Below the pieces are notes generated by a model. The model was given only the letters and a program-made list of their open reading frames with translations. It ran no database searches and had not been told where the DNA came from. From Candidatus Babelota bacterium (GTDB taxonomy: Bacteria; Babelota; Babeliae; Babelales; CAIQNR01): 64,000 nucleotides of DNA. Below, piece by piece: positions 3,766 through 57,315 of this stretch. The first letter of the stretch is position 1, and every line of letters starts with the position of its first letter. The stretch is from contig CBFHTA010000002.1 of NCBI GenBank assembly GCA_965658655.1, forward strand, positions 160,001 through 224,000, in the 5' to 3' direction. The position numbers and the translations under genes are program-made.

Positions 3766-3782
3766 AAAACCTTTGCGTTATT

Positions 3783-3856
3783 TGCGCCCGACAGGAATCG
3801 AACCTGTGGCCTACAGATTAGGAATCTGTCGCTCTATCCTACTGAGCTACGGGCAC
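3783..3856 (-). tRNA. tRNA-Arg(CCT); CCA not encoded
   Basis: Reverse complement folds as a cloverleaf: gtgcccg acceptor, anticodon arm acaga-ttCCTaa-tctgt, T-loop ggttcgattcc. Confidence 0.95.
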
Positions 3857-3905
3857 AATACTTATAGAGCAACAGTTTACTTGATTTGTTCTGCGAAGCA
3901 AATTG

Positions 3906-7172: not shown

Positions 7173-7277
7173 TCTTTCCCCTTTTTTAAATGTCTCTTAC
7201 TGAAAATACAAGATGGATAAAGGTATTGTGAAGAAATTCAAGGAAGAAAGAAACATTTAAGCTAAGAGTAAAGGCTT

Positions 7278-8990
7278 TTAGCAGCCACCTCCACCGCCTC
7301 CGCCGCCTCCGCTGCCGGCACCTCCTCCTCCAGATCCACCACCAAATCCAGAACTTGATCCTGGTGCACTAGCATTAACACTAGAAGAGAGCGATGAATT
7401 TAAATTATTAGCAAAAGAACCAGAAGAAAAGTGAGAAGAACTAAATCCACCATGATGGTAATACCAAACAGGATGATACGGTTTTCCTGCGGCTTCAAGA
7501 CGTTCAAAGACTGGTGAAAAGTTTTTAGTCCACTGGTCTTCTACACCAAGCGCCATGGCGTACGGTAAATACTTTTCGTACAACTCGGGAGTTCGTTCTG
7601 GTGGAGTACTAATGTATTTCATGCGTGGCACTTCAGCAGATTCAAGATACAGTTTAAAACCGGCAATATGATCTCGAATCTCGAACCCTTCTTTGGTGTA
7701 AGACCGTGTAGAATAGGTGAGAAGAGCTAACCCAATCCCCCCTGGAATAGCAAAGTAAAACGCTTCTGGAGAATGGGTTACCGATGAAAGCGCGGCCGCT
7801 ATAATCATGACAACGATATAAAGCACAAAGGGAACAATAAAATAACCCAAAAGTAATAGTTTATCGAGCTTCTTTCTATAATATTTTCTTGTATATTCAA
7901 GACTTTTTGTTGTCTCTTCTGATCGAGAACTATTAAGCGTTATTTTTTTGTTTCCCGCAAACAGCTTTATTAACATCTTGTAGTAAAATTCATTATTGGG
8001 AAGATTTTTCAGTTCTAATTCATACGTTTTAGAAAAATAAGAAAGAATACCTTTTTTTAAACTAATACCAATGCATTGCTGCACACCCATATTAACCAAG
8101 TCGGCTGCAAACCCTTCTGTTTTAAAACCTCTGTTTACAAAATAATTAACCATACCAGGAGTAAAGTCTTTGGGTGGTTCAAATAAAGGAATAATCGGTT
8201 TTTTGGAATCTTCTTTTTGAGTACGATCATACAAGTACCAAGCGCATATACTCATTAACAAAGAGATAACAATAAGAAAAACCCAACCCAAATGATCATA
8301 AAAACTCCACCACATTTTCTGTAATACAGAGGGTGGCGTAATAGAACCTTTTGGCATACCAATAACAATACTAAATGCTTGTCGAGGACGCAGATTGCGT
8401 GTACAAATAAATTCAATAGTATGGTGGTCTACAATTCTTGTTCTAAAAGCTTTTTTATATGAACCTTGTGAACCAGCATAAGCCGTATATTTAATCTGAT
8501 CGGTTGTTACGCCCTCAGGCAAATGAACCGTTGCAGAAGATACATCAATAGGAAACATCCAGTCGCCACCAACCACATTCCAATACAATTCATCACTGTT
8601 TTTAAAGAAACCAATATGTCGACCAACCATATAAGAAAGTTCAAAGATGTGCGAGCCATACCTTAGCCAGCTGCCGTCTCGCATGTACATACGAATACCC
8701 CGAGAAAGATACTCTGTATCCCAAGTTGAAAGAGATTTTTCACCACGCTTTATACTCTTAAGACTGAACGGAGTTTTGAACCATGAAATACCTGACCTGT
8801 AACACAAAGGAAAATCTCGATAAATTCCTTTGCGAATATTTTTACCTTGGGCACACACTTTAATTGTTTCTGTTACGTCTAACCATCCGTCTTTACGAAT
8901 CGTAATATCAGAATGATAGTTAGTAATAGCTTCGCGCGCATTAAGACTCAATGCAACAGTAAAGAACAAACCAAAAAAGAGTTTTTTCAT
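7278..8990 (-). CDS. DUF2207 membrane protein
   Basis: EAITNYHSDITI..DG.LDVTETI, ELYWNVVG.DW.FPI, YEKYLPYAMALGV, Gly-rich tail; typical partner of lemA; ATG start at 8990 preferred over TTG 9002. Confidence 0.9.
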   Translation of the reverse strand: MKKLFFGLFFTVALSLNAREAITNYHSDITIRKDGWLDVTETIKVCAQGKNIRKGIYRDFPLCYRSGISWFKTPFSLKSIKRGEKSLSTWDTEYLSRGIRMYMRDGSWLRYGSHIFELSYMVGRHIGFFKNSDELYWNVVGGDWMFPIDVSSATVHLPEGVTTDQIKYTAYAGSQGSYKKAFRTRIVDHHTIEFICTRNLRPRQAFSIVIGMPKGSITPPSVLQKMWWSFYDHLGWVFLIVISLLMSICAWYLYDRTQKEDSKKPIIPLFEPPKDFTPGMVNYFVNRGFKTEGFAADLVNMGVQQCIGISLKKGILSYFSKTYELELKNLPNNEFYYKMLIKLFAGNKKITLNSSRSEETTKSLEYTRKYYRKKLDKLLLLGYFIVPFVLYIVVMIIAAALSSVTHSPEAFYFAIPGGIGLALLTYSTRSYTKEGFEIRDHIAGFKLYLESAEVPRMKYISTPPERTPELYEKYLPYAMALGVEDQWTKNFSPVFERLEAAGKPYHPVWYYHHGGFSSSHFSSGSFANNLNSSLSSSVNASAPGSSSGFGGGSGGGGAGSGGGGGGGGGC

Positions 8991-9002
8991 GGCACTTCCC
9001 AA

Positions 9003-9551
9003 CTAGAATTTTACGTTGGGATTATTTCTTTCTTCTGGATCAACTTCAAAGAATGGAAGTACACTAAACCCAGTCATACGCGCAATAAGAGACGAGGGAA
9101 ACATTTGAACAGTCATATTAAAGTCTCGTGTTGCACCATTATAGTAACGACGCGCAAGTTGAATGTCTGTTTCTATATGGGCAAGTGTTCTTTGAAGTTC
9201 TAAAAAGTTAGTATTTGCTTTAAGTTCTGGATAACTTTCTGCAACAGCAAATAAAGTTTTAAGTGCGCCCCCCAAAGAGGCGTCTGCTGCCGCTTTACCT
9301 TCTATACCTTGAGCATTAATCGCTTTTGTTCTCGCAAGAGTTACCTTTTCGAACAGTTCAGTTTCATGCTTTGCGTACCCTTTTACTGTTTCTACTAAAT
9401 TGGGAATAAGATCATAACGACGTTTAAGTTGCACATCAATGCCACTCCACGCTTCTTCTGTCATATTCTTAAGACGTACTAATTTGTTATAAACACCCAC
9501 AGTATAGAGTGCTCCGAGAGCAAGCAAAATTAATATAATCCAAGCAATCAT
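9003..9551 (-). CDS. lemA: LemA family protein
   Basis: N-terminal TM; EAWSGIDVQLKRRYDLIPNLVETVKGYAKHE and AVAESYPELKAN signatures. Confidence 0.95.
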   Translation of the reverse strand: MIAWIILILLALGALYTVGVYNKLVRLKNMTEEAWSGIDVQLKRRYDLIPNLVETVKGYAKHETELFEKVTLARTKAINAQGIEGKAAADASLGGALKTLFAVAESYPELKANTNFLELQRTLAHIETDIQLARRYYNGATRDFNMTVQMFPSSLIARMTGFSVLPFFEVDPEERNNPNVKF

Positions 9552-9840
9552 AATCGTATCCTCTCTGTTACGACGTTAATAATTGTTTATCATTACACTT
9601 TTTTGTCGATCTGGTCAATGAATTGGCGTTTTTAAACTACTTATATACCACTCACCGTGGATCGCTCAAGAGGCACTTGTTTCCCCCTAAGAACGCAAGA
9701 CATACACTTACACTTTAATCGATTTCTAAAAAAACGATAACCCAGTGCCTGGAGCCTATTCCGTGGCTAAGACCACCTGCGCTTTGCAGCAAAGACTTTT
9801 TACTTAATAAACTATTATGTATAAAAAATAGAATGAAGAA

Positions 9841-9917
9841 TGGTGCGCCTGGCAGGACTCGAACCTGCAACCAACGGATTCGAAGTCCGGTACTCTATCC
9901 AATTGAGCTACAGGCGC
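9841..9917 (-). tRNA. tRNA-Arg(TCG)
   Basis: Reverse complement gcgcctg...ccgga-ctTCGaa-tccgt...ggttcgagtcc...caggcgc-a-cca. Confidence 0.95.
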
Positions 9918-10102
9918 ATAATATATAGAATACTGCAAAATCTTAGACAGAGCAATCTGAAACTTACTTATCTTCCAGTCCTAAAGTCGACCACTCAACT
10001 AAACCAGGGTATTTGAGTCACCTTGACGAACAGCTTCATGTTTAACAGAGCGCCCTCTACTTCATTATCCTGAGCAGGATGAAAGTTGTTTTATACAAAA
10101 CC

Positions 10103-10813
10103 TTAATCGCGCCCAAGTAACCTATACAAAAACGCTTGATCATCGCCTGCTAAATAACCGAATGGTACTAAACCGCTCTCTCCCAAAGATTCTTTTAGAA
10201 TGCGGTCTCCCTCTTCATTCACAACAACATCATTGAATGCTGCTGCTCCCGGCTCTCTTAAATCTTTGTCGGCTGAAGAAGATGCTGCGGTACTCTTTCT
10301 ATCTTCAAAACCTTTTTTACAAGTCTTTATTTTTTTCAAAAAACATTTTGATGTATGAGTCTTAAACATATCTGGCCTCATATAACTACCTTTGCAGTAA
10401 GAACAAAAATAACTGGGACTAGCACCGTGCTTTTTACTTTTTTCCACATGCCTTTTAACCTCATCTGGTCGTGCAAAAGAATTATTACATTTAAGGCACC
10501 CAAACCTAATTTTTAATTTCTTTAAGGCCATAACTTCAGCATTATGTTTTCTTGAAAATTGTTTTTCTCCTACGCTCCATGTCCTTGTACGTGGAACGTA
10601 AGTTAACAGTTCTTGAGCTTTCTTCTTATAATTATCTTCTGTTAAGCCTTTATCGTAAGGCAGCAATAAATTATATCCATCCATTTCATAAGACATATAT
10701 TCAGAATGAGATTGCGTTTTTTTTCCCTCTAAAGGAATATTTGCAGCCGAAATGTTAGTAATAGATAAAATAATTCCACTAAAAATAATAAAAAAACTGT
10801 TTTTATTCTGCAT
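10103..10813 (-). CDS. exported C2H2/C2HC zinc-finger protein
   Basis: Signal peptide ending NISA; CLKC-x12-H-x6-H and CSYC-x12-H-x3-C; Lys-rich. Confidence 0.8.
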   Translation of the reverse strand: MQNKNSFFIIFSGIILSITNISAANIPLEGKKTQSHSEYMSYEMDGYNLLLPYDKGLTEDNYKKKAQELLTYVPRTRTWSVGEKQFSRKHNAEVMALKKLKIRFGCLKCNNSFARPDEVKRHVEKSKKHGASPSYFCSYCKGSYMRPDMFKTHTSKCFLKKIKTCKKGFEDRKSTAASSSADKDLREPGAAAFNDVVVNEEGDRILKESLGESGLVPFGYLAGDDQAFLYRLLGRD

Positions 10814-34352: not shown

Positions 34353-36419
34353 TTAAACTTGATTAATATTAGGGAAATTTTGTAAAATTATTTCTTTTCC
34401 CTCTTCTTCTAAATCTGAAGATTGTAGATAATCAAAAATAAACTGTGCCATTTCTTTATCTTTTTCTACATCTAAAGACTTGATTACTCTCATAATTCCT
34501 AAACTTTTATTTTTTATAAGTTCTTTAAGAATTTCTTGATTTTCATCAAGAGTTATACGTACAACATCCTTTATCAACTTTTCTTGCAAACGCCCCATTC
34601 CCTTTAATCCTAGTTTTTTTCTCATAGATCTTATTTTGTTAAAATCTAAAAATAACATAAGCATGTTAAGATCATTTTTTTTAACAACCTTTCTTATAGA
34701 GCTTGCTGATGGATATACATTGTACAGTAACAATTGCAATACTATATCTTGTTTATCTTGAATGACTGCTTCTTCTAAAATCTCACTTGCTGGACATTTA
34801 GATGCTAGAGCCTGGAGCAAATTCAGATCATCTCTAGAAATTACTTCTGAAACTAAATCAGTACAATCATCATTATTAATAATTAATGATTGTAATACTT
34901 TTGAAGATAAAGCACTTAATACTTTTGCTGGTACATCTATGTTACCCGTCTTAAAAGAAGAACTTTCTAATACTTGTGACAAAAACCTCTCTTTACTCTC
35001 AAAACCCAAACTATTGAACTCTGTATCATCCATTTTTAATGCTTCATTAACTACAGGAACCAAAAAAGCGGTCAAAGAAAAATATGGATTGTTATTTGAA
35101 AAATCAATCATTTTTTTCAAATAAGGTTTAATTTTCTCTATTTCACTAGAGTCTTTTTTGAATCGGATTTTTGAATGCATTGAATCAAAAACCCATTCAG
35201 CATGTATTTCATAATCTTGAGAAGAATCTTTTATACCAACCTCTACAAAAGAACGCATGTTATCTTTTATATCAACCCCTACAAGGTCATCTAATACAGG
35301 TTCTGAAATAAGCTTAAGATCAATTTTACGAACATCAGAAGAAAGATGTTCCCCAAATGATTCAAATGTGTCTGTTTTTAAACCAAATAAATAATTTAAC
35401 ATATCTAATGAATTTTTAGCATTACTTTCTAATTCATATCCATCGTGACAATATTTAATCCCTTTAATACCAGAAACTAAATTCATAAATTCATTTTTTG
35501 CGTTATCATAGTAATTAAAATTATTAAATCTTTTATATTTCTCAATAAATGCTTTTAATTCAAAGTTAATATTAATCCCAGGAGGCAAAAGAGAGATATC
35601 AAGTTCTTTTTTAATAGGATTATATAATAGCATATTAATAAATCCCCATAATGCTTGCTCCACACAAATAGCTACTTTATGATTGTTATAATCTGCATAT
35701 AATTGCTGTCGTGGGATTAATTTTTGATAATAATTCAATTGACTATTAATGAGTAGCGAAACAACTTGCTCTGAATCTGCATTGTCAAATGATAATTGTT
35801 CATCTAATAAGTTAGTTTTCTGAGGTACAATTTCTAAACTAGTTAATCCCTTTATATAATCGGATAAATTTTGTGAATTTTCACTCATTGCCATTGCAAA
35901 CATAGCAAGTATATGATCTCTTTCTTTAGAAGGTATTTTATTTAATAATGCTACAAATTCTCTTATCTTCTTTTTAAAACCCTTAAATTTCAATCCTTTT
36001 TCTTTATGTAGCGCACGCCATTCTTCCCCTATATCAGACGCTAAAAAATCCTCAACATCAATATTTTCAATCTGAGCCTTTACAAATGCACCAAACAATT
36101 TTGGAGTTATAGAATAAAAAGGATTACTTGGTCGAGCTGTCTTTCGTAATCGACTATCCAAACAATTAAAAAGTAAATGTGCTAATCGACCACGATCAGT
36201 TGGGGTATCCCCTTCTCCCTCACTATATATTGCCTTCCCCCATTCACCTTCTAAGCCTATCAATCCTACTAATGGAGAATACATCTTTTTATCATCAGGT
36301 AATGATGTAAATAAATTACCACTATATAAATGACGTTGAGATGCCCAATCAGCTGTTTGCACAGGCAAAACAATTAAAAAAGCCACCAATAAAAAGAAAA
36401 AGCGTTTTGATATTTCCAT
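34353..36419 (-). CDS. large exported protein with conserved Cys/His core and degenerate helical repeats; paralog of 52651..54282
   Basis: ATG 36419 gives a signal peptide ending VQTA; AICVEQALW..INMLLYN, MNLVSGI, YELESN..N.L..LNYLF shared with the paralog. Confidence 0.8.
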   Translation of the reverse strand: MEISKRFFFLLVAFLIVLPVQTADWASQRHLYSGNLFTSLPDDKKMYSPLVGLIGLEGEWGKAIYSEGEGDTPTDRGRLAHLLFNCLDSRLRKTARPSNPFYSITPKLFGAFVKAQIENIDVEDFLASDIGEEWRALHKEKGLKFKGFKKKIREFVALLNKIPSKERDHILAMFAMAMSENSQNLSDYIKGLTSLEIVPQKTNLLDEQLSFDNADSEQVVSLLINSQLNYYQKLIPRQQLYADYNNHKVAICVEQALWGFINMLLYNPIKKELDISLLPPGININFELKAFIEKYKRFNNFNYYDNAKNEFMNLVSGIKGIKYCHDGYELESNAKNSLDMLNYLFGLKTDTFESFGEHLSSDVRKIDLKLISEPVLDDLVGVDIKDNMRSFVEVGIKDSSQDYEIHAEWVFDSMHSKIRFKKDSSEIEKIKPYLKKMIDFSNNNPYFSLTAFLVPVVNEALKMDDTEFNSLGFESKERFLSQVLESSSFKTGNIDVPAKVLSALSSKVLQSLIINNDDCTDLVSEVISRDDLNLLQALASKCPASEILEEAVIQDKQDIVLQLLLYNVYPSASSIRKVVKKNDLNMLMLFLDFNKIRSMRKKLGLKGMGRLQEKLIKDVVRITLDENQEILKELIKNKSLGIMRVIKSLDVEKDKEMAQFIFDYLQSSDLEEEGKEIILQNFPNINQV

Positions 36420-36426
36420 TTTCAAC

Positions 36427-36679
36427 CTACAATTTATTATATTGAACTCCATTATCTTTATAAAATAAACTATAACCAATTCTGGCAATAAAAATCAACG
36501 ATCTTGTATCTCTAAGCTTATTTTGACTCCATTTAAGCCTAATCATTAAAAACAATTTTAGGTTCCACATTTCTTTTACAATTTTTGCCAGTTCTGTGGC
36601 TAATATAAGATTTTCATCAGCACCTATTAGCACTGAACTAAAAGAACAAAGGGGGGAGAAAAGACTTATGGAGCTTCAT
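36427..36679 (-). pseudogene. possible small frameshifted gene remnant
   Basis: ATG 36679 joins ORF 36427..36633 if one C is removed from the C6 run (G6 at 36651-36656 on +). Confidence 0.3.
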
Positions 36680-40184: not shown

Positions 40185-40976
40185 ATGAAATTAAACGTAT
40201 TCGTCGCATTAACCGGTTTATGCTCACGCCGTAAGGCTATTGAGCTTATTAAGATGGGTGACATTACCGTAAATCATTGGGATGTCCGTAAACCTTCTTA
40301 TGAAATTCAAGAAAAAGATACCATTAGATATAAGAAAAAAGTACTTAAAATAAGTCCCGACAAGCCTGTGTATATTGCTATGAATAAGCCTGTTGGTGTA
40401 GTTACTACCCTTAAAGACACTCATAATAGACCTACCATCGTAAGCCTATTAGACAAAGAAATTAAAACACGGGTATTTCCTATCGGCCGCTTAGATACTC
40501 ACACCACCGGAATTATTCTTTTGACTAACGATGGAGAACTAGCAAATAAGCTTGCGCATCCAAAGTATAAAGTTAAAAAGGTGTATCAAATTACCCTAGA
40601 CAAAGCTGTAAAAGATTCTGATATTGCCAAGATTAAAAAAGGTATTCGTCTTAAAGATGGTTTAATTAAGCTCGACCACGTTGAGCAAAGCTACAATAAA
40701 GCCAAGGTGAAAGTAACGTTACACAGCGGTAGAACACGCATTGTTCGACGAATTTTTGAATCTTTAGGGTATACCCCTCAAAAGCTTGAACGTATTAATT
40801 TTGCCGGTATTTCTAAGCGCGGTTTAGCTCAAGGTGAATGGCGCGATTTACGACGAGTTGAAATTGTTAAACTTAAAAAAGACAATCCTGTAACAATTGA
40901 ACCGGTCAAAAAAGAAACACCACCTAAAAGAACGTATAAACCTAGAGTTAAAAAACGCTCGGTAATTAAAAAATAA
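40185..40976 (+). CDS. rRNA pseudouridine synthase (RsuA/RluB family)
   Basis: S4 domain (CSRRKA), MNKPVGVVTT, IGRLD catalytic Asp, LLTNDG. Confidence 0.93.
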   Translation: MKLNVFVALTGLCSRRKAIELIKMGDITVNHWDVRKPSYEIQEKDTIRYKKKVLKISPDKPVYIAMNKPVGVVTTLKDTHNRPTIVSLLDKEIKTRVFPIGRLDTHTTGIILLTNDGELANKLAHPKYKVKKVYQITLDKAVKDSDIAKIKKGIRLKDGLIKLDHVEQSYNKAKVKVTLHSGRTRIVRRIFESLGYTPQKLERINFAGISKRGLAQGEWRDLRRVEIVKLKKDNPVTIEPVKKETPPKRTYKPRVKKRSVIKK

Positions 40977-41030: not shown

Positions 41031-41069
41031 TATTTCAATTAGAATTTAAGAAAAATGGAGATTGCGATT

Positions 41070-42737
41070 ATGTATAGAAAGTTTCTAGGGTTATTGTTTA
41101 TAAGCATTGCGATTCAACCACTTAATGGAATGCAACAAATAATTCGTGGGACTATTCGTACTGGAACACAGGTTTTGCGTCAACAAGTTGAACGCAAAAT
41201 TCCACATACACCCCAATCACTACCAATACAAACAGCTGCTCTTACTACTGCACGTAATACACAATCTGGAAACAATCACCAAAAAAAATCATGGATTCCT
41301 CATTTTGCTGGTACAACAGGAATTGCCGCAGTATCTGTAGCTTTTGCAAATATACATGATACAGATAAAGAAAATTCATTTTATATAAAAAATATTATTG
41401 CTTTAATAGATCTAGGTATTTTACCGAAAAAAACTAACCGGAAATTAACAGATCAAGTTTTAGATTATTGTTTTGCAAATCACACACTTCATACATTAGA
41501 TCCCAATTTTTTGTATACTGCCATGCTATTTAAAACAAAATATGAAGTTTTATCTCTTAATGAACTCAATTATTACTGTTCTAATTTAGATAAATTAAAA
41601 TTATTACCCTATCAATCCTTTGATGCTTTACTCAATTCTGCTTATTGGCATAAAGAAAAATTCCCCTCTCTAATGGAAGCATTCACTTACTATTATACCA
41701 CTCAACAAATACAAGAATTAGATTTCGCCCTCACTCATCTCACTGAAGAAGAAAAAAAATTCTTCCTTCAAACTGACATCTTCACTCAATCAATAACACC
41801 TACAAGTCAACAGATTAAAACTAGTTTAACACAAGATTTCAAATCTTATAGAAACTATAATCCAGAAGCTGAAATGATCTATCGAAATATTGTTCTTAAT
41901 CATCCTGAAACTAAAGAACTTGCTGTTATGATTAACGATTTTTCTCATCAAAAATACCAAGAAAATAAAATTACTTTCTTTCATGGACAATCTTGGAAAT
42001 GGAATCTTTACGAAACAGTTTTTAACAGACTTACACAATATTTAGGAAAAGAAGTACAAGAAACTTTTAAATTTCCGAGATATACATCACAAATTACCCA
42101 AGAACAAGCAGATAGAATTCATAGAACAGGGGTAAATGAAAAAAATTCTCCTGATAGAGAACACATTCTTTTTACTAATCTTTGTCTTTTTGATAATCGT
42201 GCCCCCTCTAACTCTATGTTTTACTTTTTAAACAACTTTGATCAAAAACATAAAGAAGCATTTGATTTACATTCTACAATTGAAGGAATCGTAGACTTAT
42301 TCAAACAATACGATTTAGAACAAGAAGCTAGAAAAGTTATCTCTAAAAATAAATCTATTTTGAAATCAATTTTTGAACTTCATCAACAAGCGTCACCAGA
42401 ACGAGGCACTATATTAAGTATTTCTATTCCAGAAGCACTCGTCCCCTCTGTTGTTTACAGCACCTATATGGGGCCTGGATACAGAGGAAGCACAGAGGTT
42501 GCAATAGAAGCAGCTAAAAATTGGTCTAAAAAATATAAATATGAAGAATATGTAATTGTACTTGGTCCACTATTTACTTCTGCTCAAAAAGCAAAAGAAG
42601 AAGGAATCGAAATACACTCCTGGAACGTTGCCAACCCCGATCTCATAACAAAACGAGATAAGCTTATTGATAAAATTATTCAAGAAATTGTTAAACTTAA
42701 AAAAGACAATCCTGTAACATCGGTAATTAAAAAATAA
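41070..42737 (+). CDS. exported hypothetical protein whose C-terminus is copied from the upstream pseudouridine synthase
   Basis: Signal peptide MYRKFLGLLFISIAIQPLNG; ends EIVKLKKDNPVTSVIKK*; ORF track starts at 41055. Confidence 0.85.
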   Translation: MYRKFLGLLFISIAIQPLNGMQQIIRGTIRTGTQVLRQQVERKIPHTPQSLPIQTAALTTARNTQSGNNHQKKSWIPHFAGTTGIAAVSVAFANIHDTDKENSFYIKNIIALIDLGILPKKTNRKLTDQVLDYCFANHTLHTLDPNFLYTAMLFKTKYEVLSLNELNYYCSNLDKLKLLPYQSFDALLNSAYWHKEKFPSLMEAFTYYYTTQQIQELDFALTHLTEEEKKFFLQTDIFTQSITPTSQQIKTSLTQDFKSYRNYNPEAEMIYRNIVLNHPETKELAVMINDFSHQKYQENKITFFHGQSWKWNLYETVFNRLTQYLGKEVQETFKFPRYTSQITQEQADRIHRTGVNEKNSPDREHILFTNLCLFDNRAPSNSMFYFLNNFDQKHKEAFDLHSTIEGIVDLFKQYDLEQEARKVISKNKSILKSIFELHQQASPERGTILSISIPEALVPSVVYSTYMGPGYRGSTEVAIEAAKNWSKKYKYEEYVIVLGPLFTSAQKAKEEGIEIHSWNVANPDLITKRDKLIDKIIQEIVKLKKDNPVTSVIKK

Positions 42738-49136: not shown

Positions 49137-49575
49137 CTAACCTTCTCTATACAAACGAATTTTTTCGCTTTCAACTTCAAGAATAATTTTATTGGGTCTT
49201 TCTTTGTGCAATCGAAACCATGCAGAGATCATGTTCAAAAACTCATTCACCGTTGTTTTGTATGCATTTGGATCTGGATATTCATCAAAATCTGGATCAA
49301 CAAACCATCCAATTAAAACAAAATTACCTTCTTTTTGTTGTTTAAATACTACCTTGTACTTATCAATACTCTTTCTTGCTTCTAATATCTTTTTAACAAC
49401 TTCTTGTCTTGTCCAATCGGAAGGAAAGAATGTAGACCATTTTGGTTCTTTTCCAAACATTCCCCATTTAAACTTATATACACCATTTTTATCTTGAACC
49501 ATTTCTAAAATTTCTATGGGTTGGCCCAAAAACTTTTTATTTTTAAAATTTGTCTTTTTCAAATCATGATGCCAA
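49137..49575 (-). pseudogene. orphan EndoU toxin-tip fragment fused to an immunity-gene C-terminal fragment
   Basis: WHHDLKK...STFFPSDWTRQEVVKKILEARK homologous to ~50270-50516; tail resembles the C-terminus of 49718..50158; no proper 5' end. Confidence 0.75.
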
Positions 49576-49663
49576 GCCGTCTTGGCCCCTCCTTCGCATA
49601 AAGCTTTCGCGCGCGCGGCAAGGCGGAGTTTATCCTGAGCAAAGTCGAAGGGCCGGACACGGC
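49576..49663. mobile_element. GC-rich MITE/REP-like insert
   Basis: GC-rich ~88 bp; imperfect terminal inverted repeats gccgtcttggccc / gggccggacacggc; sits exactly where toxin homology stops. Confidence 0.55.
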
Positions 49664-49717
49664 CATTTTTTTAAAGGAAAACATTCTGAGAGAGAATCAA
49701 CTTTACCCGCTTAGCCC

Positions 49718-50158
49718 CTAATCAAGAACATCTTCTCCAGCAAGATTTTTTGTAGGTGCATCTTCTGCATACACACGAATATTATTATCATCTGATAATT
49801 CAAGAGTAATACGATTCTTATCTTCTCCATAAGCCCATATCCATTGCTTTATTCCATTCAAAAGTTTTTCTTTTGGAATAACAACAGAAGGAGGTTCTTC
49901 GGGTGCATATTCATACCCTATAAGAATATTGTTCCTTTCAAATTCACAGTCAAACATATTCGTTGCAAACGGAGTATTTTTTTTAATTCTCTCAAGCATT
50001 CGAGCTGTTTCTTCAGGATTCCCCACTATACCATCTAAAAACAACTGCATTAAAGTTCCAGCTTTTGTATCTGACCCCTGCCATATGTGATAACAATATT
50101 TTCCTTTTGTTTCACTAGAAACAGGATAAAAAGTCTTTGTACATACCGATTTCTTCAT
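49718..50158 (-). CDS. putative cognate immunity protein
   Basis: 146-aa ORF without signal peptide, 9 bp downstream of the toxin stop; partial homolog within the orphan module. Confidence 0.7.
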   Translation of the reverse strand: MKKSVCTKTFYPVSSETKGKYCYHIWQGSDTKAGTLMQLFLDGIVGNPEETARMLERIKKNTPFATNMFDCEFERNNILIGYEYAPEEPPSVVIPKEKLLNGIKQWIWAYGEDKNRITLELSDDNNIRVYAEDAPTKNLAGEDVLD

Positions 50159-50167
50159 ATTTACCTT

Positions 50168-51733
50168 TTAAAATTCAGGATAAATTGTAATTATATTTTT
50201 TTTATGTTTATCCACTATAAAACTAATTTTAATACCCTCTTTAGTAAAACCAGATCTAATAAATCGCCCACTGTCTTGTTTCACAAAGGGTGCTTTATAT
50301 TTTTCAATATTCTTTCTTGCTTCTAATATCTTTTTAACAACTTCTTGGCGAGTCCAATCAGAAGGGAAAAATGTTGAAGGCTTTGGTCTCTTACCAAACA
50401 TGCTCCACTCAAATTGATAAATTCCGTTCTTACCTTGAACTACATTTAAAATTTCTATAGGATGCCCATGAAACTTTTTATTCTTAAAAATTGTCTTTTT
50501 TAAATCATGATGCCAACCTCCAATAGATCTTTTAACTTCTCCAAACTTAGTGGTGTATGTTTTTATATCTGGCTGAAACAAATGCCTTGGGCGAATGTCT
50601 ATTAACTCTCCTTTGAACTGCATATGCAACAATGCAAGATCTTCTTCTAGTGCAAGCCACTTTGTTGCACTACCTTTTAATGCTGGTACAAGGTTACCAT
50701 GCATTTTAGTAACAGGGTCTTTGGCCTCCATTGCCATTAAATTAAGATATTCACCCATTGTTGGCACAATAATATTAGGTGCACCTTCTACGGCAAAAGA
50801 ATATTCAGATACTTTTTCTGCTGCATCAAGCCATTTGTTTGCATTGTTATATGTATATTTAGAAAATTGCCCGATCGCTCCCATTGCTCTTTCTAACAGC
50901 ACCACTTCAACACCAAATGCTGTTGCGCATCGAATGAAATCATACCGCGGAATAGATCTTACAACCTCTATAACTTCTTCTATCTGCTCTTTATGAGTTA
51001 AAAAACGATTATAAAGTTTTTCGGGATCCATCATTGAATAATAAGAGATAGCACCGCACTCTTTTAGTACATACGCCATTGCACGGGCTGTTTTAACAAT
51101 ACCATGAGCCATTTGCTTTGCTGTTCTTGTAGGGTGCAAGCAAGCATCAACAGTATTAAAAACGCCATCTTTTGCACCATAGGCAACTGCTTTTCCGCAT
51201 TCAAGCAACCCCCAACACACATCGAGCAAGCGACTGGTAAAAAGCACTCCACCCTGCTTATTTGCTTGATGTGCAAGTTCCCCAAGCGAGCCGATTGTAT
51301 CTTGATACTCTTTGTCTACCACAAGATCTGCCGCTTGTGCCTGAATATCTAGAAGCTCTTGATGCAATACATGCTGAAACTCGTTACCTTTGAATTGCTG
51401 ATACTCTTGCCCATTACCATACGTGTTTATAAAGCTTTTTGTTTTTTGAGACAGTGCATAGTTTTTTTTAACTACTTTTGCAGGATCAAAATTCTTAAAC
51501 GCACGCAAACGCCTTTCTTGATGCGCATCTTCAAAGAATTGCCACTCTTCTAGAACATGAACTAAAAGATATTTTTCTTGATACTCAGCACGCCTTTTAG
51601 CACATGCTCGTTCTTCTTTTCTCTGAATCTCCTGTTGCCTTTGTCTTCTTTGCGCTCTTCTTGTTCTTGCTTTTGCAGCTCTCTTTTTTTTTGAGCTGCG
51701 AGAAAACGCAACTGTTGATCTATCTGATCCCAC
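50168..51733 (-). CDS. polymorphic toxin, C-terminal bacterial EndoU nuclease domain (downstream frame of a split gene)
   Basis: RHLF...GGWHHD...KPSTFFPSDW...G..I...ITIYP pattern of bacterial EndoU toxins. Confidence 0.8.
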   Translation of the reverse strand: MGSDRSTVAFSRSSKKKRAAKARTRRAQRRQRQQEIQRKEERACAKRRAEYQEKYLLVHVLEEWQFFEDAHQERRLRAFKNFDPAKVVKKNYALSQKTKSFINTYGNGQEYQQFKGNEFQHVLHQELLDIQAQAADLVVDKEYQDTIGSLGELAHQANKQGGVLFTSRLLDVCWGLLECGKAVAYGAKDGVFNTVDACLHPTRTAKQMAHGIVKTARAMAYVLKECGAISYYSMMDPEKLYNRFLTHKEQIEEVIEVVRSIPRYDFIRCATAFGVEVVLLERAMGAIGQFSKYTYNNANKWLDAAEKVSEYSFAVEGAPNIIVPTMGEYLNLMAMEAKDPVTKMHGNLVPALKGSATKWLALEEDLALLHMQFKGELIDIRPRHLFQPDIKTYTTKFGEVKRSIGGWHHDLKKTIFKNKKFHGHPIEILNVVQGKNGIYQFEWSMFGKRPKPSTFFPSDWTRQEVVKKILEARKNIEKYKAPFVKQDSGRFIRSGFTKEGIKISFIVDKHKKNIITIYPEF

Positions 51734-51900
51734 TTATTGTAAGCACCAGCCATTATGGAAAAAGATACATTTCCCCATTGATTAGAAACATTATCGCTTT
51801 CTTGAGAACCCCAAGGAGTATCAGCCGCAACCCAGTAAGAAAATGTACAAGAGTGTGTTAATAGTAAAAAAATAAAAAGTGAAAATCGCTTAGAATACAC
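51562..51900 (-). CDS. signal-peptide N-terminal part of the toxin gene (upstream frame of the split gene)
   Basis: Signal peptide; overlaps the toxin ORF by 172 bp, with the toxin ORF in the -1 frame; A9 tract at 51684-51692. Confidence 0.65.
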   Translation of the reverse strand: MYSKRFSLFIFLLLTHSCTFSYWVAADTPWGSQESDNVSNQWGNVSFSIMAGAYNKWDQIDQQLRFLAAQKKRELQKQEQEERKEDKGNRRFREKKNEHVLKGVLSIKKNIF

Positions 51901-51901
51901 T

Positions 51902-52414
51902 TCAACCTCCTATCACCCCAAAGCAGTAATTTATCCACTCAAAAGAATAATCTAAAAATTTCACAGCCCAAATAGTACTCACAAATGCTGTTTTTATTAT
52001 ATTGCGTGTTTTGTAAGCAACATAAATAACACCAATGATTTTCCCTACGTCATAGAAAGAAAAGTATTTATTGCCTACACTTTGGTTACAACAATGCGGT
52101 TTACATCCTCTACACCTATAAAAATCTACTTGTGATTTATGTCCATTATGGTCACCATTATGCGCATCAGAATCTTTTGGTTGAACCCTATAATGGCTTT
52201 CATTAGATTTTTCACAAGAATCAAGCTCTGCTGAAACATCAAGTGGCCCATCATCTAAATAGGTATATTGCTCTCCATGGTCATTATACTTATTCATGAA
52301 AACATCTAATGATTCATGATCAGAAGAATCAATCGAGAATAACGATTGCATTGACAGACAAACAAAAACAAGCATCAAGCAAAATCGCCCAGAATGGGCT
52401 TTCAGATAAAACAT
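51902..52414 (-). CDS. exported/membrane hypothetical protein upstream of the toxin
   Basis: 170 aa, signal peptide, CRGC..HCC, C-terminal hydrophobic segments; 1 bp from the next start. Confidence 0.65.
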   Translation of the reverse strand: MFYLKAHSGRFCLMLVFVCLSMQSLFSIDSSDHESLDVFMNKYNDHGEQYTYLDDGPLDVSAELDSCEKSNESHYRVQPKDSDAHNGDHNGHKSQVDFYRCRGCKPHCCNQSVGNKYFSFYDVGKIIGVIYVAYKTRNIIKTAFVSTIWAVKFLDYSFEWINYCFGVIGG

Positions 52415-52526
52415 CGCAGACTCCTCTATAATTAAATCTGCGATATACTACTATGTAAAAAATGAAAAATCAAACCGCCAATACTGTAGTCAAAAGGTGC
52501 AATCCGAGCATTTATTTTTTAATAAC

Positions 52527-52607
52527 CTAGCCCCGCAAAGCTTTACGTAAATATGGTGCTGTTTGGCTTACTTTAGAACGGGCAACTACTTTTGGTTCAC
52601 CCTCTGC
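52527..52607 (-). repeat. diverged copy of uvrA 3' end (last 26 codons plus stop)
   Basis: 72/81 identical to 54391-54471; encodes AEGEPKVVARSKVSQTAPYLRKALRG*. Confidence 0.95.
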
Positions 52608-52650
52608 TCCATGAGCTAATAATAAAGCAACCAAATAGTCACGATCACTT

Positions 52651-54282
52651 TCAATAGCCTTCTGCAATGGGCATTCTTAATTCCATTGTTAAATTTGGAT
52701 TAGCTCCGTACTTTAGCAAAAGTTCACCTATTTCTAAATTTTCGTTATCTAAAGCCCATTGCAAAGGAGTCGATCCATTGTGATCAAAAACATCTACTAT
52801 AGCACCGCGCTCTAATAAAAACTGCACTATTTTTACATTGTCGCTATTTACAGCATGATGCAATGGCATCGCAAAGCCAACCTTAGCATTAATATCAATA
52901 TTTAAACTCAATAAACGATGGATTAAATCTTGATCATTATCTTCAACAGCATTTATCAACAAATTTGCAAAGGATGGAGGAACTAATGCTTCTAAAGATA
53001 TTAATGGGTATCTTTTTTTTAATCTCTCAATAATTTCTAAAAATTCCATAGAAAAAACTTTTTCATCAACCTTAATTTTACGATCAATAGATATCCAAAC
53101 ATGATCAGGGGAAAACTGCCAATCCAATACAGAATCAATACTATTTTTAATTAGAACTTTTACATATATTTTTTTTGATACTAATTCACTCTCTGGTTCT
53201 ATTATTAAAGACATAGCAATAGCACGCCGTTCACTTGAAACCAATTTACCAAAATCTTCAAAACTATTTGCTGATGTGTCAAACAGATAATTTAATAATT
53301 TTAAAGCATTTTGCTCATTACTTTCAAGCGCATAATTTCCTTTAATATAAACTACACCTGGAACATTTGAAACAAGATTCATCCAAGATTGCTTTGCTAA
53401 TTCACTATATCTAGGTACCCGAGGATTTGAATATGTTTCAATAAATGTCTTAAAAGCAGGCAAAACTTCTCTTTTTTTAGAAAGGAGTTCTAAATCTAAT
53501 CTATCTGTTTTCTCGTTGTATAACATAAAATTCACTACAGTCCAAAGCGCATCCTCTCCACAAATCGCCACCTCTTCTTTCCCGTCAAAAGAAGCTCTTA
53601 AATGGCGCATATGCAAAAAATCAAATGTTTTATTTTTTTTACTTATAAGTGTTGCCGCAATTATTTGATCTATATCATTAGTCAAATCACTTAATTCCTG
53701 GTCTGTAAATTGTTGCGGCTCTATTTCAACACCAACCCCTTTTGCATAAGCCGCCAAATCCTTACCATCACGACTTATCAAATACGCAAATGCAGCTATT
53801 ATTCTAGCAGTTTCTTCTTGAGGAACTTTTTTCATTAATTCAATAATTTCTTGAAAAACTTGGTTAAACTTTTTTTTCTTACCCTTTGCATTTTTATGAT
53901 TTTTTTTATATTCATCAAACCATTTTTGTGCTGTTTCTTCAGTTAAATAATCTGATATTGAATTTTCTAAAATTGCTTTATTTAATTCCCCTAACAACAA
54001 ATGACTTGGAGAATTCATAAAATTATATTTTTTTTGAGTTAAACGTAATTCACCATCAAGAACATGTCCCATTTTTTGTATTAAATGTGCAACTTCACTT
54101 TCACCTTCATATGCTTTAACTACATCGCCACTTTCTAAAAATGCCGCTCCCACAACAGGAGATGCTGCCTCTTTACCTTGTTGTTTAAATGGCGTCATTG
54201 TGCCTTTAAGCCATGAAGGATCCATCGCCTGCACGGACGTAATACTAAAACTCAATAATAAAATAAATATTTTGCGAACCAC
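52651..54282 (-). CDS. exported Cys/His-core protein with C-terminal ankyrin repeats (3' end frameshifted)
   Basis: GTG 54282 after aggagg; signal peptide ending VQA; AICGEDALW core; PLHHAV...RGA, TPLQWAL...YGA; a further ankyrin repeat continues in the +1 frame to 52527. Confidence 0.85.
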   Translation of the reverse strand: MVRKIFILLLSFSITSVQAMDPSWLKGTMTPFKQQGKEAASPVVGAAFLESGDVVKAYEGESEVAHLIQKMGHVLDGELRLTQKKYNFMNSPSHLLLGELNKAILENSISDYLTEETAQKWFDEYKKNHKNAKGKKKKFNQVFQEIIELMKKVPQEETARIIAAFAYLISRDGKDLAAYAKGVGVEIEPQQFTDQELSDLTNDIDQIIAATLISKKNKTFDFLHMRHLRASFDGKEEVAICGEDALWTVVNFMLYNEKTDRLDLELLSKKREVLPAFKTFIETYSNPRVPRYSELAKQSWMNLVSNVPGVVYIKGNYALESNEQNALKLLNYLFDTSANSFEDFGKLVSSERRAIAMSLIIEPESELVSKKIYVKVLIKNSIDSVLDWQFSPDHVWISIDRKIKVDEKVFSMEFLEIIERLKKRYPLISLEALVPPSFANLLINAVEDNDQDLIHRLLSLNIDINAKVGFAMPLHHAVNSDNVKIVQFLLERGAIVDVFDHNGSTPLQWALDNENLEIGELLLKYGANPNLTMELRMPIAEGY

Positions 54283-54390
54283 TTTAAACCTCCTTTTTAA
54301 ACTATACTTTTTAAGCATACTCTATATGAGAAGGCATAATAAAGAGTTTTACATCCTAAAGTCATTTGTAAGCTTAAATCCTTAAAACCC

Positions 54391-56955
54391 TTAAGCTCGT
54401 AATGCTTTACGTAAATATGGTGCTGTTTGACTTACTTTTGAACGGGCAACTACTTTTGGTTCACCTTCTGCAACCACAGTTCCACCCTCTGCTCCACCTT
54501 CTGGTCCCATATCAATAATATAATCTGCTGTTTTCAAAACATCTAAATTATGTTCAATAACAAGAACAGAATTACCTTTGGCAACCAGTCGATTTAATAC
54601 TTTGAGCAATTTCTCAATATCGCTTGAGTGCAAACCTGTTGTTGGCTCATCAAGAACATATAATGTTCGAGTCCCTCGTTTTGCTAACTCATTAACGAGT
54701 TTAATACGTTGAGCCTCTCCACCAGAAAGCGTTGTTGAAGATTGAGCTAACTTTAGATAATCAAGACCAACGTCACACAACAACTGCAAACGTTTAATGA
54801 TATTCTTATGTGCAGCAAAAAATTTCATTGCTTCTACGGCTGTCATGTCGAGAACGTCGGCAATGTTCTTTCTTTTATACGTAATTTGCAATGTCTCTTT
54901 ATTGTAGCGCCGCCCCTTACAGGTTTTACAGATCATGGTAACATCGGCCAAAAAGTGCATTTCAACAGTTATGGTTCCATTACCCGAACAATCAAAACAA
55001 CGCCCAACCGGTCTGTTGAAACTGAATCGCCCTGCTTTATAACCACGCACTTGGCTCTCAGGCAACGCTGCAAATAAATTTCTAATTTCGTCAAAAATAC
55101 CTAGATAGGTTGCGGGGTTAGACCGAGAGGATCGACCGATTGGCTTTTGATCAATAACAACTAAAGCATTAACTTGATCACCTCCAACTAAATCTTTTGT
55201 TGGAACTACTCGACGACGATTACCAGTTAGCTCTTGTTCAACAGCCGGAACTAATTCTTCTAACACCAATGAACTTTTACCCGAACCAGAAACTCCTGAT
55301 ATGCCACACAGTACCCCTAACGGAAAACGCACAGTAATATCTTTTAAGTTGTTTTTTTTCGCATGCTTTAAAATTAAATATGCATACGGTGTTCTTCTAA
55401 ACTCAGGTAACTCAATTTTTTTCTTACCACTTAAATAAGCACCAGTCAGAGAATTAGTATCTTTTGTAATTTGATTAGGAGTTCCAATAGCCGTAATGGT
55501 TCCACCATGCACACCAGCCTCTGGACCCATATCAATAAGATAGTCGGCCGCTTTCATAGTATCTTCGTCATGCTCAACAACTACAACTGTGTTGCCTTGA
55601 TCACGTAAACTTTTAAGTGTTTTAATTAAACGGTCGTTGTCTCGTTGATGCAAACCAATACTTGGTTCATCAAGAATATAAAGTACACCACTAAGCGCAG
55701 AACCAATTTGTGTAGCCAATCGAATACGTTGCCCTTCCCCACCAGAAAGTGTTCGTGCCGTTCTATTAAGTGTTAAGTAAGGCAACCCAACATCATCTAA
55801 GAACTGTAATCTTCGGGTAATCTCATTGAGTAACGCCTTAGCTATTTTTTTTGATGTTGCATCTATTTTTATCTTCTTAAACCATTCAAGCGCTTCTTTA
55901 ATAGGCATTTCAGAAATTTGATAAATATTTTTTTTATCAACCTCTACCGCCAAAGCAAATTTGTTTAATCGTTGACCTTTACATTCTTCACACCCTAAGC
56001 GTGTTGCATATTTTTTAAAAAAATCTGGATATTTGGTTTTCCAATAATCTTTATCCCCTTTATCCCACGGCCATTTATTGGTTATCCCTAATCCAGAACA
56101 ACTTTTACATGCACCTACCGGAGAATTAAAAGAAAAAAAACGCGGCTCAAGTTCAGGAAACGCATTACTACATTTAAGACACATGCGCTGGGAAGCATAC
56201 AACTGCTCTTTTTTGCCCGAAACTACCTTAACCAGACCGTCTGAAAGCTGCTCTGCTTTTTCTACCGCCTCTTGAATTCTAGGGCGCTCTTCCTCTTCAA
56301 CCGTTAACGCATCAACTAATACATCAATAGTATGTTTATACGTTTTGCCTAATTTCAGAGCATCTATCTCTTCTACGCTTGAAAATTTGTATTGTTTACC
56401 ATCTATCTCAAATCTATAAAACCCCTGCTGAAAATGATGTTTTAAATCATTTTTAAACTCACCCTTTTGCTCACGAACAATCGGTGCACTAATAACTACC
56501 GACCTATCCTTAAAGAGCGCAAGAATATGATGAGCCATACTTTCTGGAGATTGCGCTCCTACCTTAATAGCACAATCAGGACAATGGGCAACCCCAATAC
56601 GAGCAAAAAGCACCCGTAAGTAATCGTAAATTTCTGTAATAGTTCCAACAGTAGATCGAGGATTTGCCCCAACTGTTTTTTGCTCAATCGCAATGGCTGG
56701 ACACAAACCTTCTATTTGATCAACGTCTGGTTTACGTGCAATACCCAAAAATTGTCGGGCGTAGGCAGACAGCGATTCGGTATACCGACGTTTACCTTCG
56801 GTATATAAAATATCTAAAGCCAAAGAACTTTTCCCCGATCCAGATGGACCAGTAATAACAGTAAACGCTTCTTTTGGAATCTCTACAGAAACGTTTTTAA
56901 GGTTATGTTCACGCGCTCCAGTAACCTTAATCCACGAACGATGTTTCTTCGCCAT
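54391..56955 (-). CDS. uvrA: excinuclease ABC subunit A
   Basis: GAREHNLKN, two GxSGSGKSS Walker A motifs, two LSGGE signatures, zinc-binding CxxC pairs. Confidence 0.98.
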   Translation of the reverse strand: MAKKHRSWIKVTGAREHNLKNVSVEIPKEAFTVITGPSGSGKSSLALDILYTEGKRRYTESLSAYARQFLGIARKPDVDQIEGLCPAIAIEQKTVGANPRSTVGTITEIYDYLRVLFARIGVAHCPDCAIKVGAQSPESMAHHILALFKDRSVVISAPIVREQKGEFKNDLKHHFQQGFYRFEIDGKQYKFSSVEEIDALKLGKTYKHTIDVLVDALTVEEEERPRIQEAVEKAEQLSDGLVKVVSGKKEQLYASQRMCLKCSNAFPELEPRFFSFNSPVGACKSCSGLGITNKWPWDKGDKDYWKTKYPDFFKKYATRLGCEECKGQRLNKFALAVEVDKKNIYQISEMPIKEALEWFKKIKIDATSKKIAKALLNEITRRLQFLDDVGLPYLTLNRTARTLSGGEGQRIRLATQIGSALSGVLYILDEPSIGLHQRDNDRLIKTLKSLRDQGNTVVVVEHDEDTMKAADYLIDMGPEAGVHGGTITAIGTPNQITKDTNSLTGAYLSGKKKIELPEFRRTPYAYLILKHAKKNNLKDITVRFPLGVLCGISGVSGSGKSSLVLEELVPAVEQELTGNRRRVVPTKDLVGGDQVNALVVIDQKPIGRSSRSNPATYLGIFDEIRNLFAALPESQVRGYKAGRFSFNRPVGRCFDCSGNGTITVEMHFLADVTMICKTCKGRRYNKETLQITYKRKNIADVLDMTAVEAMKFFAAHKNIIKRLQLLCDVGLDYLKLAQSSTTLSGGEAQRIKLVNELAKRGTRTLYVLDEPTTGLHSSDIEKLLKVLNRLVAKGNSVLVIEHNLDVLKTADYIIDMGPEGGAEGGTVVAEGEPKVVARSKVSQTAPYLRKALRA

Positions 56956-57108: not shown

Positions 57109-57185
57109 GGTGGATGTAGCTCAGTTGGTAGAGCACCAGGTTGTGGTTCTGGGGGTCGTGGGTTCAATCCCCATCATCCACCCCA
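57109..57185 (+). tRNA. tRNA-His(GTG) with encoded G-1 and CCA
   Basis: g-gtggatg...ccagg-ttGTGgt-tctgg...ggttcaatcc...catccac-c-cca. Confidence 0.95.
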
Positions 57186-57239
57186 CTAAATTTGACATTA
57201 TAATTCTACAATTTACCTTGTAGACTTAAAGATTTCAGT

Positions 57240-57315
57240 CGGGATGTGGCGCAGTTGGTAGCGCACTCGCTTTGGGAGCGAGGGGTCGCCAGTTCGAGTC
57301 TGGCCATCCCGACCA
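57240..57315 (+). tRNA. tRNA-Pro(TGG)
   Basis: cgggatg...ctcgc-ttTGGga-gcgag...agttcgagtct...catcccg-a-cca. Confidence 0.95.

Follow-up and report, generated by a model that had tools for sequence, protein, structure and literature searches.

Arrival of new DNA beside a conserved gene, with a displaced copy of that gene's 3′ end left behind, is a kind of event that is already known, and the locus described here appears to be a further example. It lies in a 64,000-nt stretch of DNA (the window; C2:160001-224000) from the 0.93-Mb genome of a Babeliales-type bacterium (928,713 bases in 4 contigs, with an estimated completeness of about 95%), DNA of which was found in marine plankton metagenome runs, and it comprises the DNA-repair gene uvrA, an ankyrin-repeat gene behind it and, at the far end of the latter, a second copy of the last 26 uvrA codons. 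The assignment to Babeliales (Dependentiae) follows the name 'Candidatus Babeliales bacterium' attached to UvrA proteins of relatives (P0037, P0047, P0048 and P0082). The closest described counterpart is element e14 (and likewise phage 21) in the icd gene of Escherichia coli, which replaces the 3′ end of icd by one that it brings along and leaves behind a pseudo-icd copy of 163 bp, as outlined in PMC6379469. As in that outline, the housekeeping gene at the uvrA locus is whole, its displaced 3′ end is retained as a direct repeat beyond the insert, and the two ends encode near-identical residues. Unlike e14 as outlined there, the uvrA locus has no integrase, phage genes or fixed core site in its insert, which consists of one truncated cell gene, and the codon at which the repeat starts differs between the two genomes with uvrA tail copies. 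The e14/icd account reportedly goes back to Hill et al. in 1989.

Displacement of C-terminal coding sequences has also been described for rhs, contact-dependent inhibition (CDI) and type VI secretion system (T6SS) effector-immunity loci, where it was proposed to proceed via homology-facilitated illegitimate recombination (PMC5361080). The uvrA locus resembles these loci, as far as that paper's account of displacement goes, in having a conserved upstream anchor with new DNA behind it, an old end orphaned downstream and a far joint that appears to be illegitimate; the same anchor, in the form of the two uvrA ends, both precedes the incoming DNA and heads the displaced piece. It is unlike them in that the anchor is a DNA-repair gene, the cargo brings no alternative anchor end, and the cargo gene is itself truncated. 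A study by Jackson et al. from 2009 is said, going by that paper's reference list, to belong to the same literature. Homology-facilitated illegitimate recombination as such has been followed in E. coli conjugation (PMC3240628). The uvrA case would share with that account the pairing of a homologous end with an illegitimate one formed at a few common bases, but it is read from a naturally occurring scar in an uncultured organism, and recipient sequence was duplicated rather than deleted. The process has reportedly also been worked on in Acinetobacter, Streptococcus and Pseudomonas.

As for the host group, Chromulinavorax destructans is reported to carry 98 ankyrin-repeat copies, 78% of them with a signal peptide, and the same source states that Babeliales encode rec and ruv recombination functions and that most of their ankyrin proteins are exported via N-terminal signal peptides (PMC6561590). 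The ankyrin gene of the window matches this description in its N-terminal leader and C-terminal repeats, and in having many paralogs within a small genome, but is unlike the set described there in its N-terminal domain of about 440 residues, for which neither a Pfam family nor a solved fold was matched. Among the Dependentiae/Babeliales papers found on ankyrin transfer, uvrA or effector recombination, none described duplicated core-gene ends in its title or abstract.

A repeat search identified a direct repeat at 52507-52607 and 54371-54471, with a spacing of 1864, and when the tail sequence was used to search the whole genome, only these two places were matched. The copy within the working uvrA is referred to as tail A and the displaced copy as tail B (Table 1). 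Over the 81 nt of 26 codons plus stop, the two differ at nine positions, distributed as 0, 1 and 8 over first, second and third codon positions. Six sense codons differ silently (gaa/gag, tca/tct, agt/agc, gca/gct, tta/ttg and cga/cgg in tails A and B, respectively), the stop codon is TAA in tail A and TAG in tail B, and the sole amino acid change is in the last sense codon (GCT, Ala, in A; GGC, Gly, in B). These are exactly the codon pairs listed in the original prediction, an earlier reading of the bare sequence, which had claimed a duplicated uvrA tail with almost only synonymous differences. At least eight of nine differences would fall at third positions by chance with P = 0.00097. Nei-Gojobori counting gave 7 synonymous differences over 20.3 sites and 1 nonsynonymous difference over 57.7 sites (Fisher P = 2.0e-4), corresponding to a synonymous divergence (dS) of 0.46, a nonsynonymous divergence (dN) of 0.018 and a dN/dS of 0.04. 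For whole uvrA, comparison of the window genome with a sister species (genome G001) gave values of 1.28, 0.063 and 0.05, respectively, so that the silent distance between the tails is about one-third of that between the two species.

Free drift of one copy after a local duplication would be expected to make at least about half of the changes non-silent. As the dN/dS of the tails matches that of working uvrA orthologs, it is well supported that both diverged as ends of working uvrA genes under selection, in two lineages, and the earlier proposal that both had evolved as real uvrA ends would thereby stand. The likeness of the two tails runs through the stop codon and ceases a few bases beyond. 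Neither tail folded better as RNA than shuffled sequences (z +1.6 for tail B, +0.4 for tail A), and codon usage singled out neither: G or C stands at the third position in 1 of the 27 codons of tail A, in 6 of the 27 of tail B and in 27% of codons genome-wide.

The gene between the tails is damaged. Its 555-aa open reading frame (ORF) carries ankyrin repeats at residues 454-544 (Ank_2, 57.2 bits against a Pfam cut-off of 27.3), while its first 450 residues had no Pfam match. As this frame stops at a tga at 52651-52653 and the frame of the tail is open downwards from 52676, one surplus base must lie in the stretch between (Table 1), which includes the place, at about 52671-52680, where the original prediction had suspected it. 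When the break was bridged by an X, the read-through ran ...LLLKYGANPNLTMELXCPLQKAIESDRDYLVALLLAHGA and from there directly into EGEPKVVARSKVSQTAPYLRKALRG and the stop codon, so that a further repeat does continue in frame into the UvrA C-terminus, as had been foreseen. The bridged C-terminal part scored 66.7 bits for Ank_2, and the best Ank matches reached residue 104 of the read-through at most; the last repeat is identified by its alignment with the last-but-one repeat of the orthologs P0002 and P0003, in which PLQ.A.E......V.LLL..GA is conserved, and not by Pfam. The 46-aa ORF that contains the tail had no Pfam family match.

A protein search (5.8 billion proteins; 7999 candidates scored) returned 7 matches at E <= 1e-5. 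These included the orthologs P0002 (68% identical, 647 aa), P0003 (49%, 633 aa) and P0004 (35%, 701 aa), all single unbroken frames. They align across the break and, past '..LLL.(Y/H)GA', run on as D(I/V)(E/K)A(I/V)DGKGETAL.VAIRK... for about 37 further residues, at the place where the window gene has the uvrA tail. As the orthologs align across the break and then carry their own end, the continuation past the break is genuine ankyrin-gene sequence, the gene was cut exactly after '...HGA', where the uvrA repeat starts, with a loss of about 37 codons, and the frame break is a later or separate defect. The term 'ankyrin-UvrA fusion' used previously was therefore too strong, since only 26 of 854 uvrA codons are involved and they stand in place of a lost natural ankyrin end. 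Three paralogs in the window genome, with open frames of 713-784 aa, match the N-terminal domain at 28-34% identity; a copy that could have served as the source of the ankyrin gene was not found elsewhere in this genome, and G001 held nothing better than a match to the ankyrin repeats alone.

We favour, with moderate confidence, the explanation that tail B is a recombination scar, left by one recombination with a related lineage, of which one end was homologous, in uvrA, and the other illegitimate, in the ankyrin gene. The core of this explanation, namely that DNA was exchanged with another lineage through an anchor in uvrA, is shared with its principal rival and is regarded as likely. The two-lineage origin, the mechanism and the microhomology that we infer are as follows. 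Two uvrA alleles would have diverged in two lineages, each within a working uvrA, to about one-third of the inter-species distance, and DNA of one lineage would then have recombined into the other. The first crossover would have been homologous, in or beside uvrA. The second joint would have been illegitimate, with the ankyrin gene being joined after '...HGA' to uvrA codon 829, probably via a few shared bases (GCAGA); the joint reads GGA GCA GAG GGT, uvrA has GCA GAA GGT, and the orthologs have Gly-Ala-Asp (GGA GCA GAY) there. Such an outcome is what homology-facilitated illegitimate recombination should produce; an equivalent product would come from one crossover of a circularised, tail-carrying fragment with the tail in the chromosome. 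The working uvrA would have remained whole and the other uvrA end would have been displaced, so that the ankyrin gene initially had 26 borrowed uvrA codons as its end and was later shortened to 555 aa by the surplus base. Such a replaced C-terminus would be tolerable if export relies on the N-terminal signal.

Table 1. Features of the uvrA locus, in window coordinates.
Feature	Position	Strand	Remarks
uvrA	54391..56955	-	854 aa, intact; Pfam UvrA_inter and two ABC modules; 91% identity to G001 ortholog
Tail A	54391..54471	-	final 26 codons and TAA of working uvrA
Spacer between uvrA stop and ankyrin start	54319..54390	-	72 nt; unlike the post-uvrA spacer of G001 (best local match 16 columns)
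Ankyrin-repeat gene, present reading	52651..54318	-	555 aa: N-terminal hydrophobic leader, domain of ~440 aa, three ankyrin repeats, premature stop
Stretch with one surplus base (+1 frame break)	52654..52677	-	from frame reading and X-bridged read-through; identical in run X2 contig
Last retained ankyrin repeat (ECPLQKAIESDRDYLVALLLAHG)	52608..52676	-	out of frame with the remainder of the ankyrin gene
Tail B	52527..52607	-	displaced copy of last 26 uvrA codons and TAG; joint with ankyrin gene at 52607/52608
46-nt block upstream of 170-aa gene	52430..52475	-	41/46 identical to block ahead of G001 ortholog
170-aa membrane-type protein gene	51902..52414	-	ortholog of the gene directly 3′ of uvrA in G001 (BLASTP, synteny)

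Read on the minus strand, uvrA is followed by the 72-nt spacer, the ankyrin ORF, the 46-aa ORF in the next frame (ending at 52527), a 112-nt spacer and the 170-aa gene. In G001, a 161-aa gene comes directly after uvrA and dtd comes next; an ankyrin gene is absent from that place, and the 161-aa protein and the 170-aa protein of the window are orthologs (BLASTP E = 3e-11, 27% identity). Relative to G001, two extras stand between uvrA and dtd in the window genome: a 1,864-bp piece, made up of a spacer, the truncated ankyrin gene and the extra uvrA end, and an EndoU toxin cluster at 49137-51733. In G001, the 7.8 kb downstream of uvrA contained no copy of that genome's own uvrA tail, of tail A or of tail B. 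The spacer behind tail B ends in the 46-nt block that is also found ahead of the 161-aa gene of G001 (Table 1) and that is probably the conserved promoter region of the 170-aa gene, while the spacer behind tail A had no match in the G001 spacer. As the block adjoins the 170-aa gene, it is no proof that tail B and this gene have always been linked. A promoter-like site in the 72-nt spacer (54365-54336) was given no weight, with 10 such sites in the region against 9.5 expected.

The two tails differ in their likeness to the sister species. At six of the eight variable sites G001 has the tail-A state (GAA, TCA, AGT, TTA, GCT and TAA), and at none does it clearly have the tail-B state. One of the conditions that would have refuted the original prediction, namely that neither tail resembles the alleles of relatives more than the other, thus did not hold. 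As sister alleles are equally far from an outgroup and A/T-ending codons are favoured in both genomes, either tail could, despite this likeness, be the resident one. The homologous crossover could equally have taken place in uvrA, with tail A arriving together with the ankyrin gene, or downstream, with tail B arriving together with the 170-aa gene. In a UvrA search of genome contigs, G001 was the only close relative among 80 loci; a lineage-specific UvrA stretch found 3 loci in metagenome contigs, the best of which was 63% identical, and the JGI relatives P0013 and P0014 were not among them.

Several neighbouring features were observed in addition. Two tRNA-like sequences belonging to a repeat family lie 130 nt apart just upstream of uvrA (window 57112-57295, plus strand). 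The EndoU locus, on the minus strand and absent from that place in G001, encodes a 521-aa protein with a C-terminal EndoU domain, followed by a 146-aa ORF. A 141-aa ORF in the same locus begins with a partial copy of the EndoU domain (222 nt, 81% identical), and by eye its end resembles that of the 146-aa ORF; from its sequence it looks like an orphan toxin/immunity chimera. The N-terminal domain of about 440 residues in the ankyrin gene (window 52984-54318, minus strand) has paralogs at window 34353-36488 and C1:48284-50614, and Cys253, Glu255, Trp259, Asn263 and His406 are invariant in 6 sequences. Its AlphaFold model was mediocre (pLDDT 67.9, pTM 0.46), with the Cys at a helix start; no usable Atlas match was obtained, and a Foldseek search of the PDB found no match at E <= 0.001. 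A papain-like, thiol-protease-like activity is a guess suggested by the invariant Cys253 and His406.

An extra end of uvrA was also found in a distant relative of the same order (genome G029, C1:514000-526000, positions 3475-10220 of that stretch), in which the last 90 uvrA codons are copied 1.9 kb behind uvrA, after an inserted AAA-ATPase gene that is split into ORFs of 398 and 136 aa. The two copies share 451 nt at 92% identity, comprising the tail, the spacer and the first 50 nt or so of the next gene, while the two AAA proteins are only 27.5% identical. The tails differ by 23 silent and 2 non-silent codon changes (Fisher P = 1e-14), and the coding tail is about 90% identical, against 97-100% for the 180 nt past the stop. 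In one survey, a fragment beside uvrA was seen in 2 of 31 genomes; a family survey found none in 41 genomes, with a foreign 119-aa query that would miss short tails.

Within the window genome, a batch search with the tails of 665 ORFs gave 56 downstream and 60 upstream matches, mostly tandem paralog arrays, from which four cases of tail copies, including uvrA, were picked by eye; this number is a minimum and not a rate. Two weak candidates, at C2:91812-92525 and C4:35098-35658, were set aside on ORF lists alone. A pseudouridine-synthase gene (window 40185-40976, plus strand) ends in EIVKLKKDNPVT, 21 further residues and SVIKK, and the gene that comes after it (41055-42737), which encodes 560 aa and matched no Pfam family, ends in DKIIQEIVKLKKDNPVTSVIKK; the end of the latter is identical to the pseudouridine-synthase tail over 36 and 21 bases, the two blocks being separated by a gap of 63 nt. 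Proteins homologous to the 560-aa product stop about 10 residues past a conserved ID.II, and G001 lacks the gene at that place. The 560-aa gene is an intact chimeric gene of the same build as the uvrA case, with no tail divergence. The spacers after the pseudouridine-synthase gene and after its tail copy showed no likeness to G001.

In the third case (C1:516506-519176), the last 17 or so codons plus stop of a penicillin-binding-protein gene recur 906 nt downstream, beside the convergent rpsT, the copies being separated by an inserted gene for an Ntox37 toxin and a small ORF on the opposite strand. G001 (C46) has an 87-nt copy (91%) at the same penicillin-binding-protein/rpsT place with a different cargo, a 328-aa gene. 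This tail copy forms a hairpin between runs of A and T (z -2.8; 2 of 200 shuffles fold as well) and may have been retained as a terminator. In the fourth case (C1:476500-480600), the tail of a class II tRNA-synthetase gene recurs between two tandem C2H2 zinc-finger genes. In contrast to uvrA, the copy has two coding changes, both non-silent (Ile/Thr and loss of the stop), and is the product of a plain local tandem duplication, in which the tail was copied along with the repeat unit. The zinc-finger proteins, of 205 aa each and 48% identical to one another, bear signal peptides and are of the eukaryote-type C2H2 kind, and their genes are convergent to the synthetase gene.

A number of points weigh against the favoured explanation. 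Compared with G001, nearly all change lies on the branch of tail B, although changes would be expected on both branches if the alleles were equally old (about P = 0.03); a shared preference for A/T-ending codons may be part of the cause. A degenerate pattern for 16 tail codons found no donor, with 0 matches in the metagenome and genome contig collections, and neither ..ALRA nor ..ALRG occurs as the end of any of the 15 closest UvrA proteins. The tail is 81 nt long, and hence all counts are small. The proposed microhomology derives from the Asp codon of the orthologs and not from donor DNA. Finally, the pseudouridine-synthase case shows that the architecture can arise without allelic divergence. 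This last point bears on the principal rival, in which a local event first placed the ankyrin gene and an identical uvrA end in one genome and the 3′ part of uvrA was then replaced by a diverged allele, the replacement tract ending at the edge of the core gene. It would account equally well for the silent-only pattern, and the shift in identity at the uvrA stop in G029 suits a tract that ends there. However, it requires two events where one suffices, no tract boundary is visible in the window, where the tails differ through the stop and their likeness ends a few bases on, and a source copy of the ankyrin gene is lacking in the genome. It is therefore considered rather unlikely. The claim that the effector had arrived by inter-strain transfer and not by local duplication is consequently no more than plausible, as a local event followed by allelic replacement fits equally; in both cases, one uvrA-anchored recombination with another lineage is needed. 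The favoured single recombination is also preferred to selection for the 26 uvrA codons as a working ankyrin C-terminus, which seems very improbable. The last ankyrin repeat is in frame with the tail, and a borrowed core-gene tail does serve as the intact C-terminus of the neighbouring 560-aa gene, but the frame is broken upstream of the tail, the break recurs in a second sample, the ends of the orthologs are quite different, and the tail RNA has no special fold; the borrowed residues would, moreover, need a constraint like that of UvrA itself (0.04 versus 0.05). A programmed +1 ribosomal frameshift yielding the full ankyrin-UvrA-tail protein could be envisaged, as neither frame is closed around the site and the orthologs show homology to the downstream one. 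Those orthologs are unbroken, however, the AGA at the site is a common codon (27% of Arg codons in 556 ORFs) and no known slippery motif is evident by eye, and of all the alternatives this was judged the least credible.

As the genome is metagenome-derived and the two tails resemble alleles of two strains, it was also conceivable that two co-occurring strains had been joined at the shared uvrA end during assembly. Run X1 may be the source of the assembly. A contig of 829 nt from run X2, a second sample of the same study in which 44% of sampled words were present, lies on 51866-52694 with 0 differences and no gap; it takes in the frame break, the joint of the ankyrin gene with tail B, tail B itself and the beginning of the 170-aa gene. 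Its support is moderate, as it is a consensus sequence with a depth of about 4 and comes from the same study. Among the matches listed for runs X1 and X2, no contig covered about 53806-54339, the 5′ end of the ankyrin gene, or bridged tail A to the ankyrin gene, and the contigs of run X3 gave no cover. The ankyrin/tail-B joint shares at most 13 bases with the sequence upstream in uvrA, too few for a k-mer join, and no variant letters were reported at either tail. An assembly chimera, which the original prediction had named as a danger, is countered by the repetition of the joint in the second sample and is highly improbable. Equally improbable is a remnant of an integrase-driven element that targeted the uvrA 3′ end and supplied a substitute end, as e14 does in icd. 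The insert is flanked by direct repeats of the uvrA 3′ end, and a distant relative also has an insert at the end of uvrA, but the 1,864-bp insert encodes a single ORF with ankyrin domains only, no site-specific recombinase or phage gene was found in it (serine recombinases and transposases were not searched separately), and the only two tyrosine recombinases of the genome (PF00589; C2:108488 and C1:519236) both lie outside the window. Furthermore, the repeat starts at uvrA codon 829 here and at about codon 770 in G029, and similar tail copies stand at other core genes. Two further readings were ruled out: a plain tandem duplication, as the ankyrin protein shows no relationship to the 170-aa protein (E = 2.5), and a UvrA domain fusion, as only residues 829-854 of 854 were copied, without the ABC or interaction modules.

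Beyond the single locus, the 3′ ends of core genes in this Babeliales lineage may tentatively be seen as regular, integrase-free landing places for secreted-protein and toxin genes, with a homology anchor in the core gene, a displaced tail copy left behind and a newcomer that often has a borrowed C-terminus. This possibility is raised because four tail copies occur in a 0.93-Mb genome (at uvrA and the pseudouridine-synthase, penicillin-binding-protein and class II tRNA-synthetase genes), because a distant relative has its own uvrA case, and because at the rpsT spot the tail copy has been kept while the cargo differs between sister species.

Uncultured intracellular bacteria of protists have large, fast-changing sets of secreted ankyrin and toxin genes, the turnover of which is hardly known. 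A displaced gene end with near-silent divergence is rare direct evidence of DNA exchange with related lineages, in which a core gene serves as the homologous anchor. Scoring copies of core-gene ends for silent versus non-silent changes would allow imported DNA to be told from local duplication without a donor genome, and at scale. A replaced C-terminus is tolerated by these genes, which fits export by an N-terminal signal.

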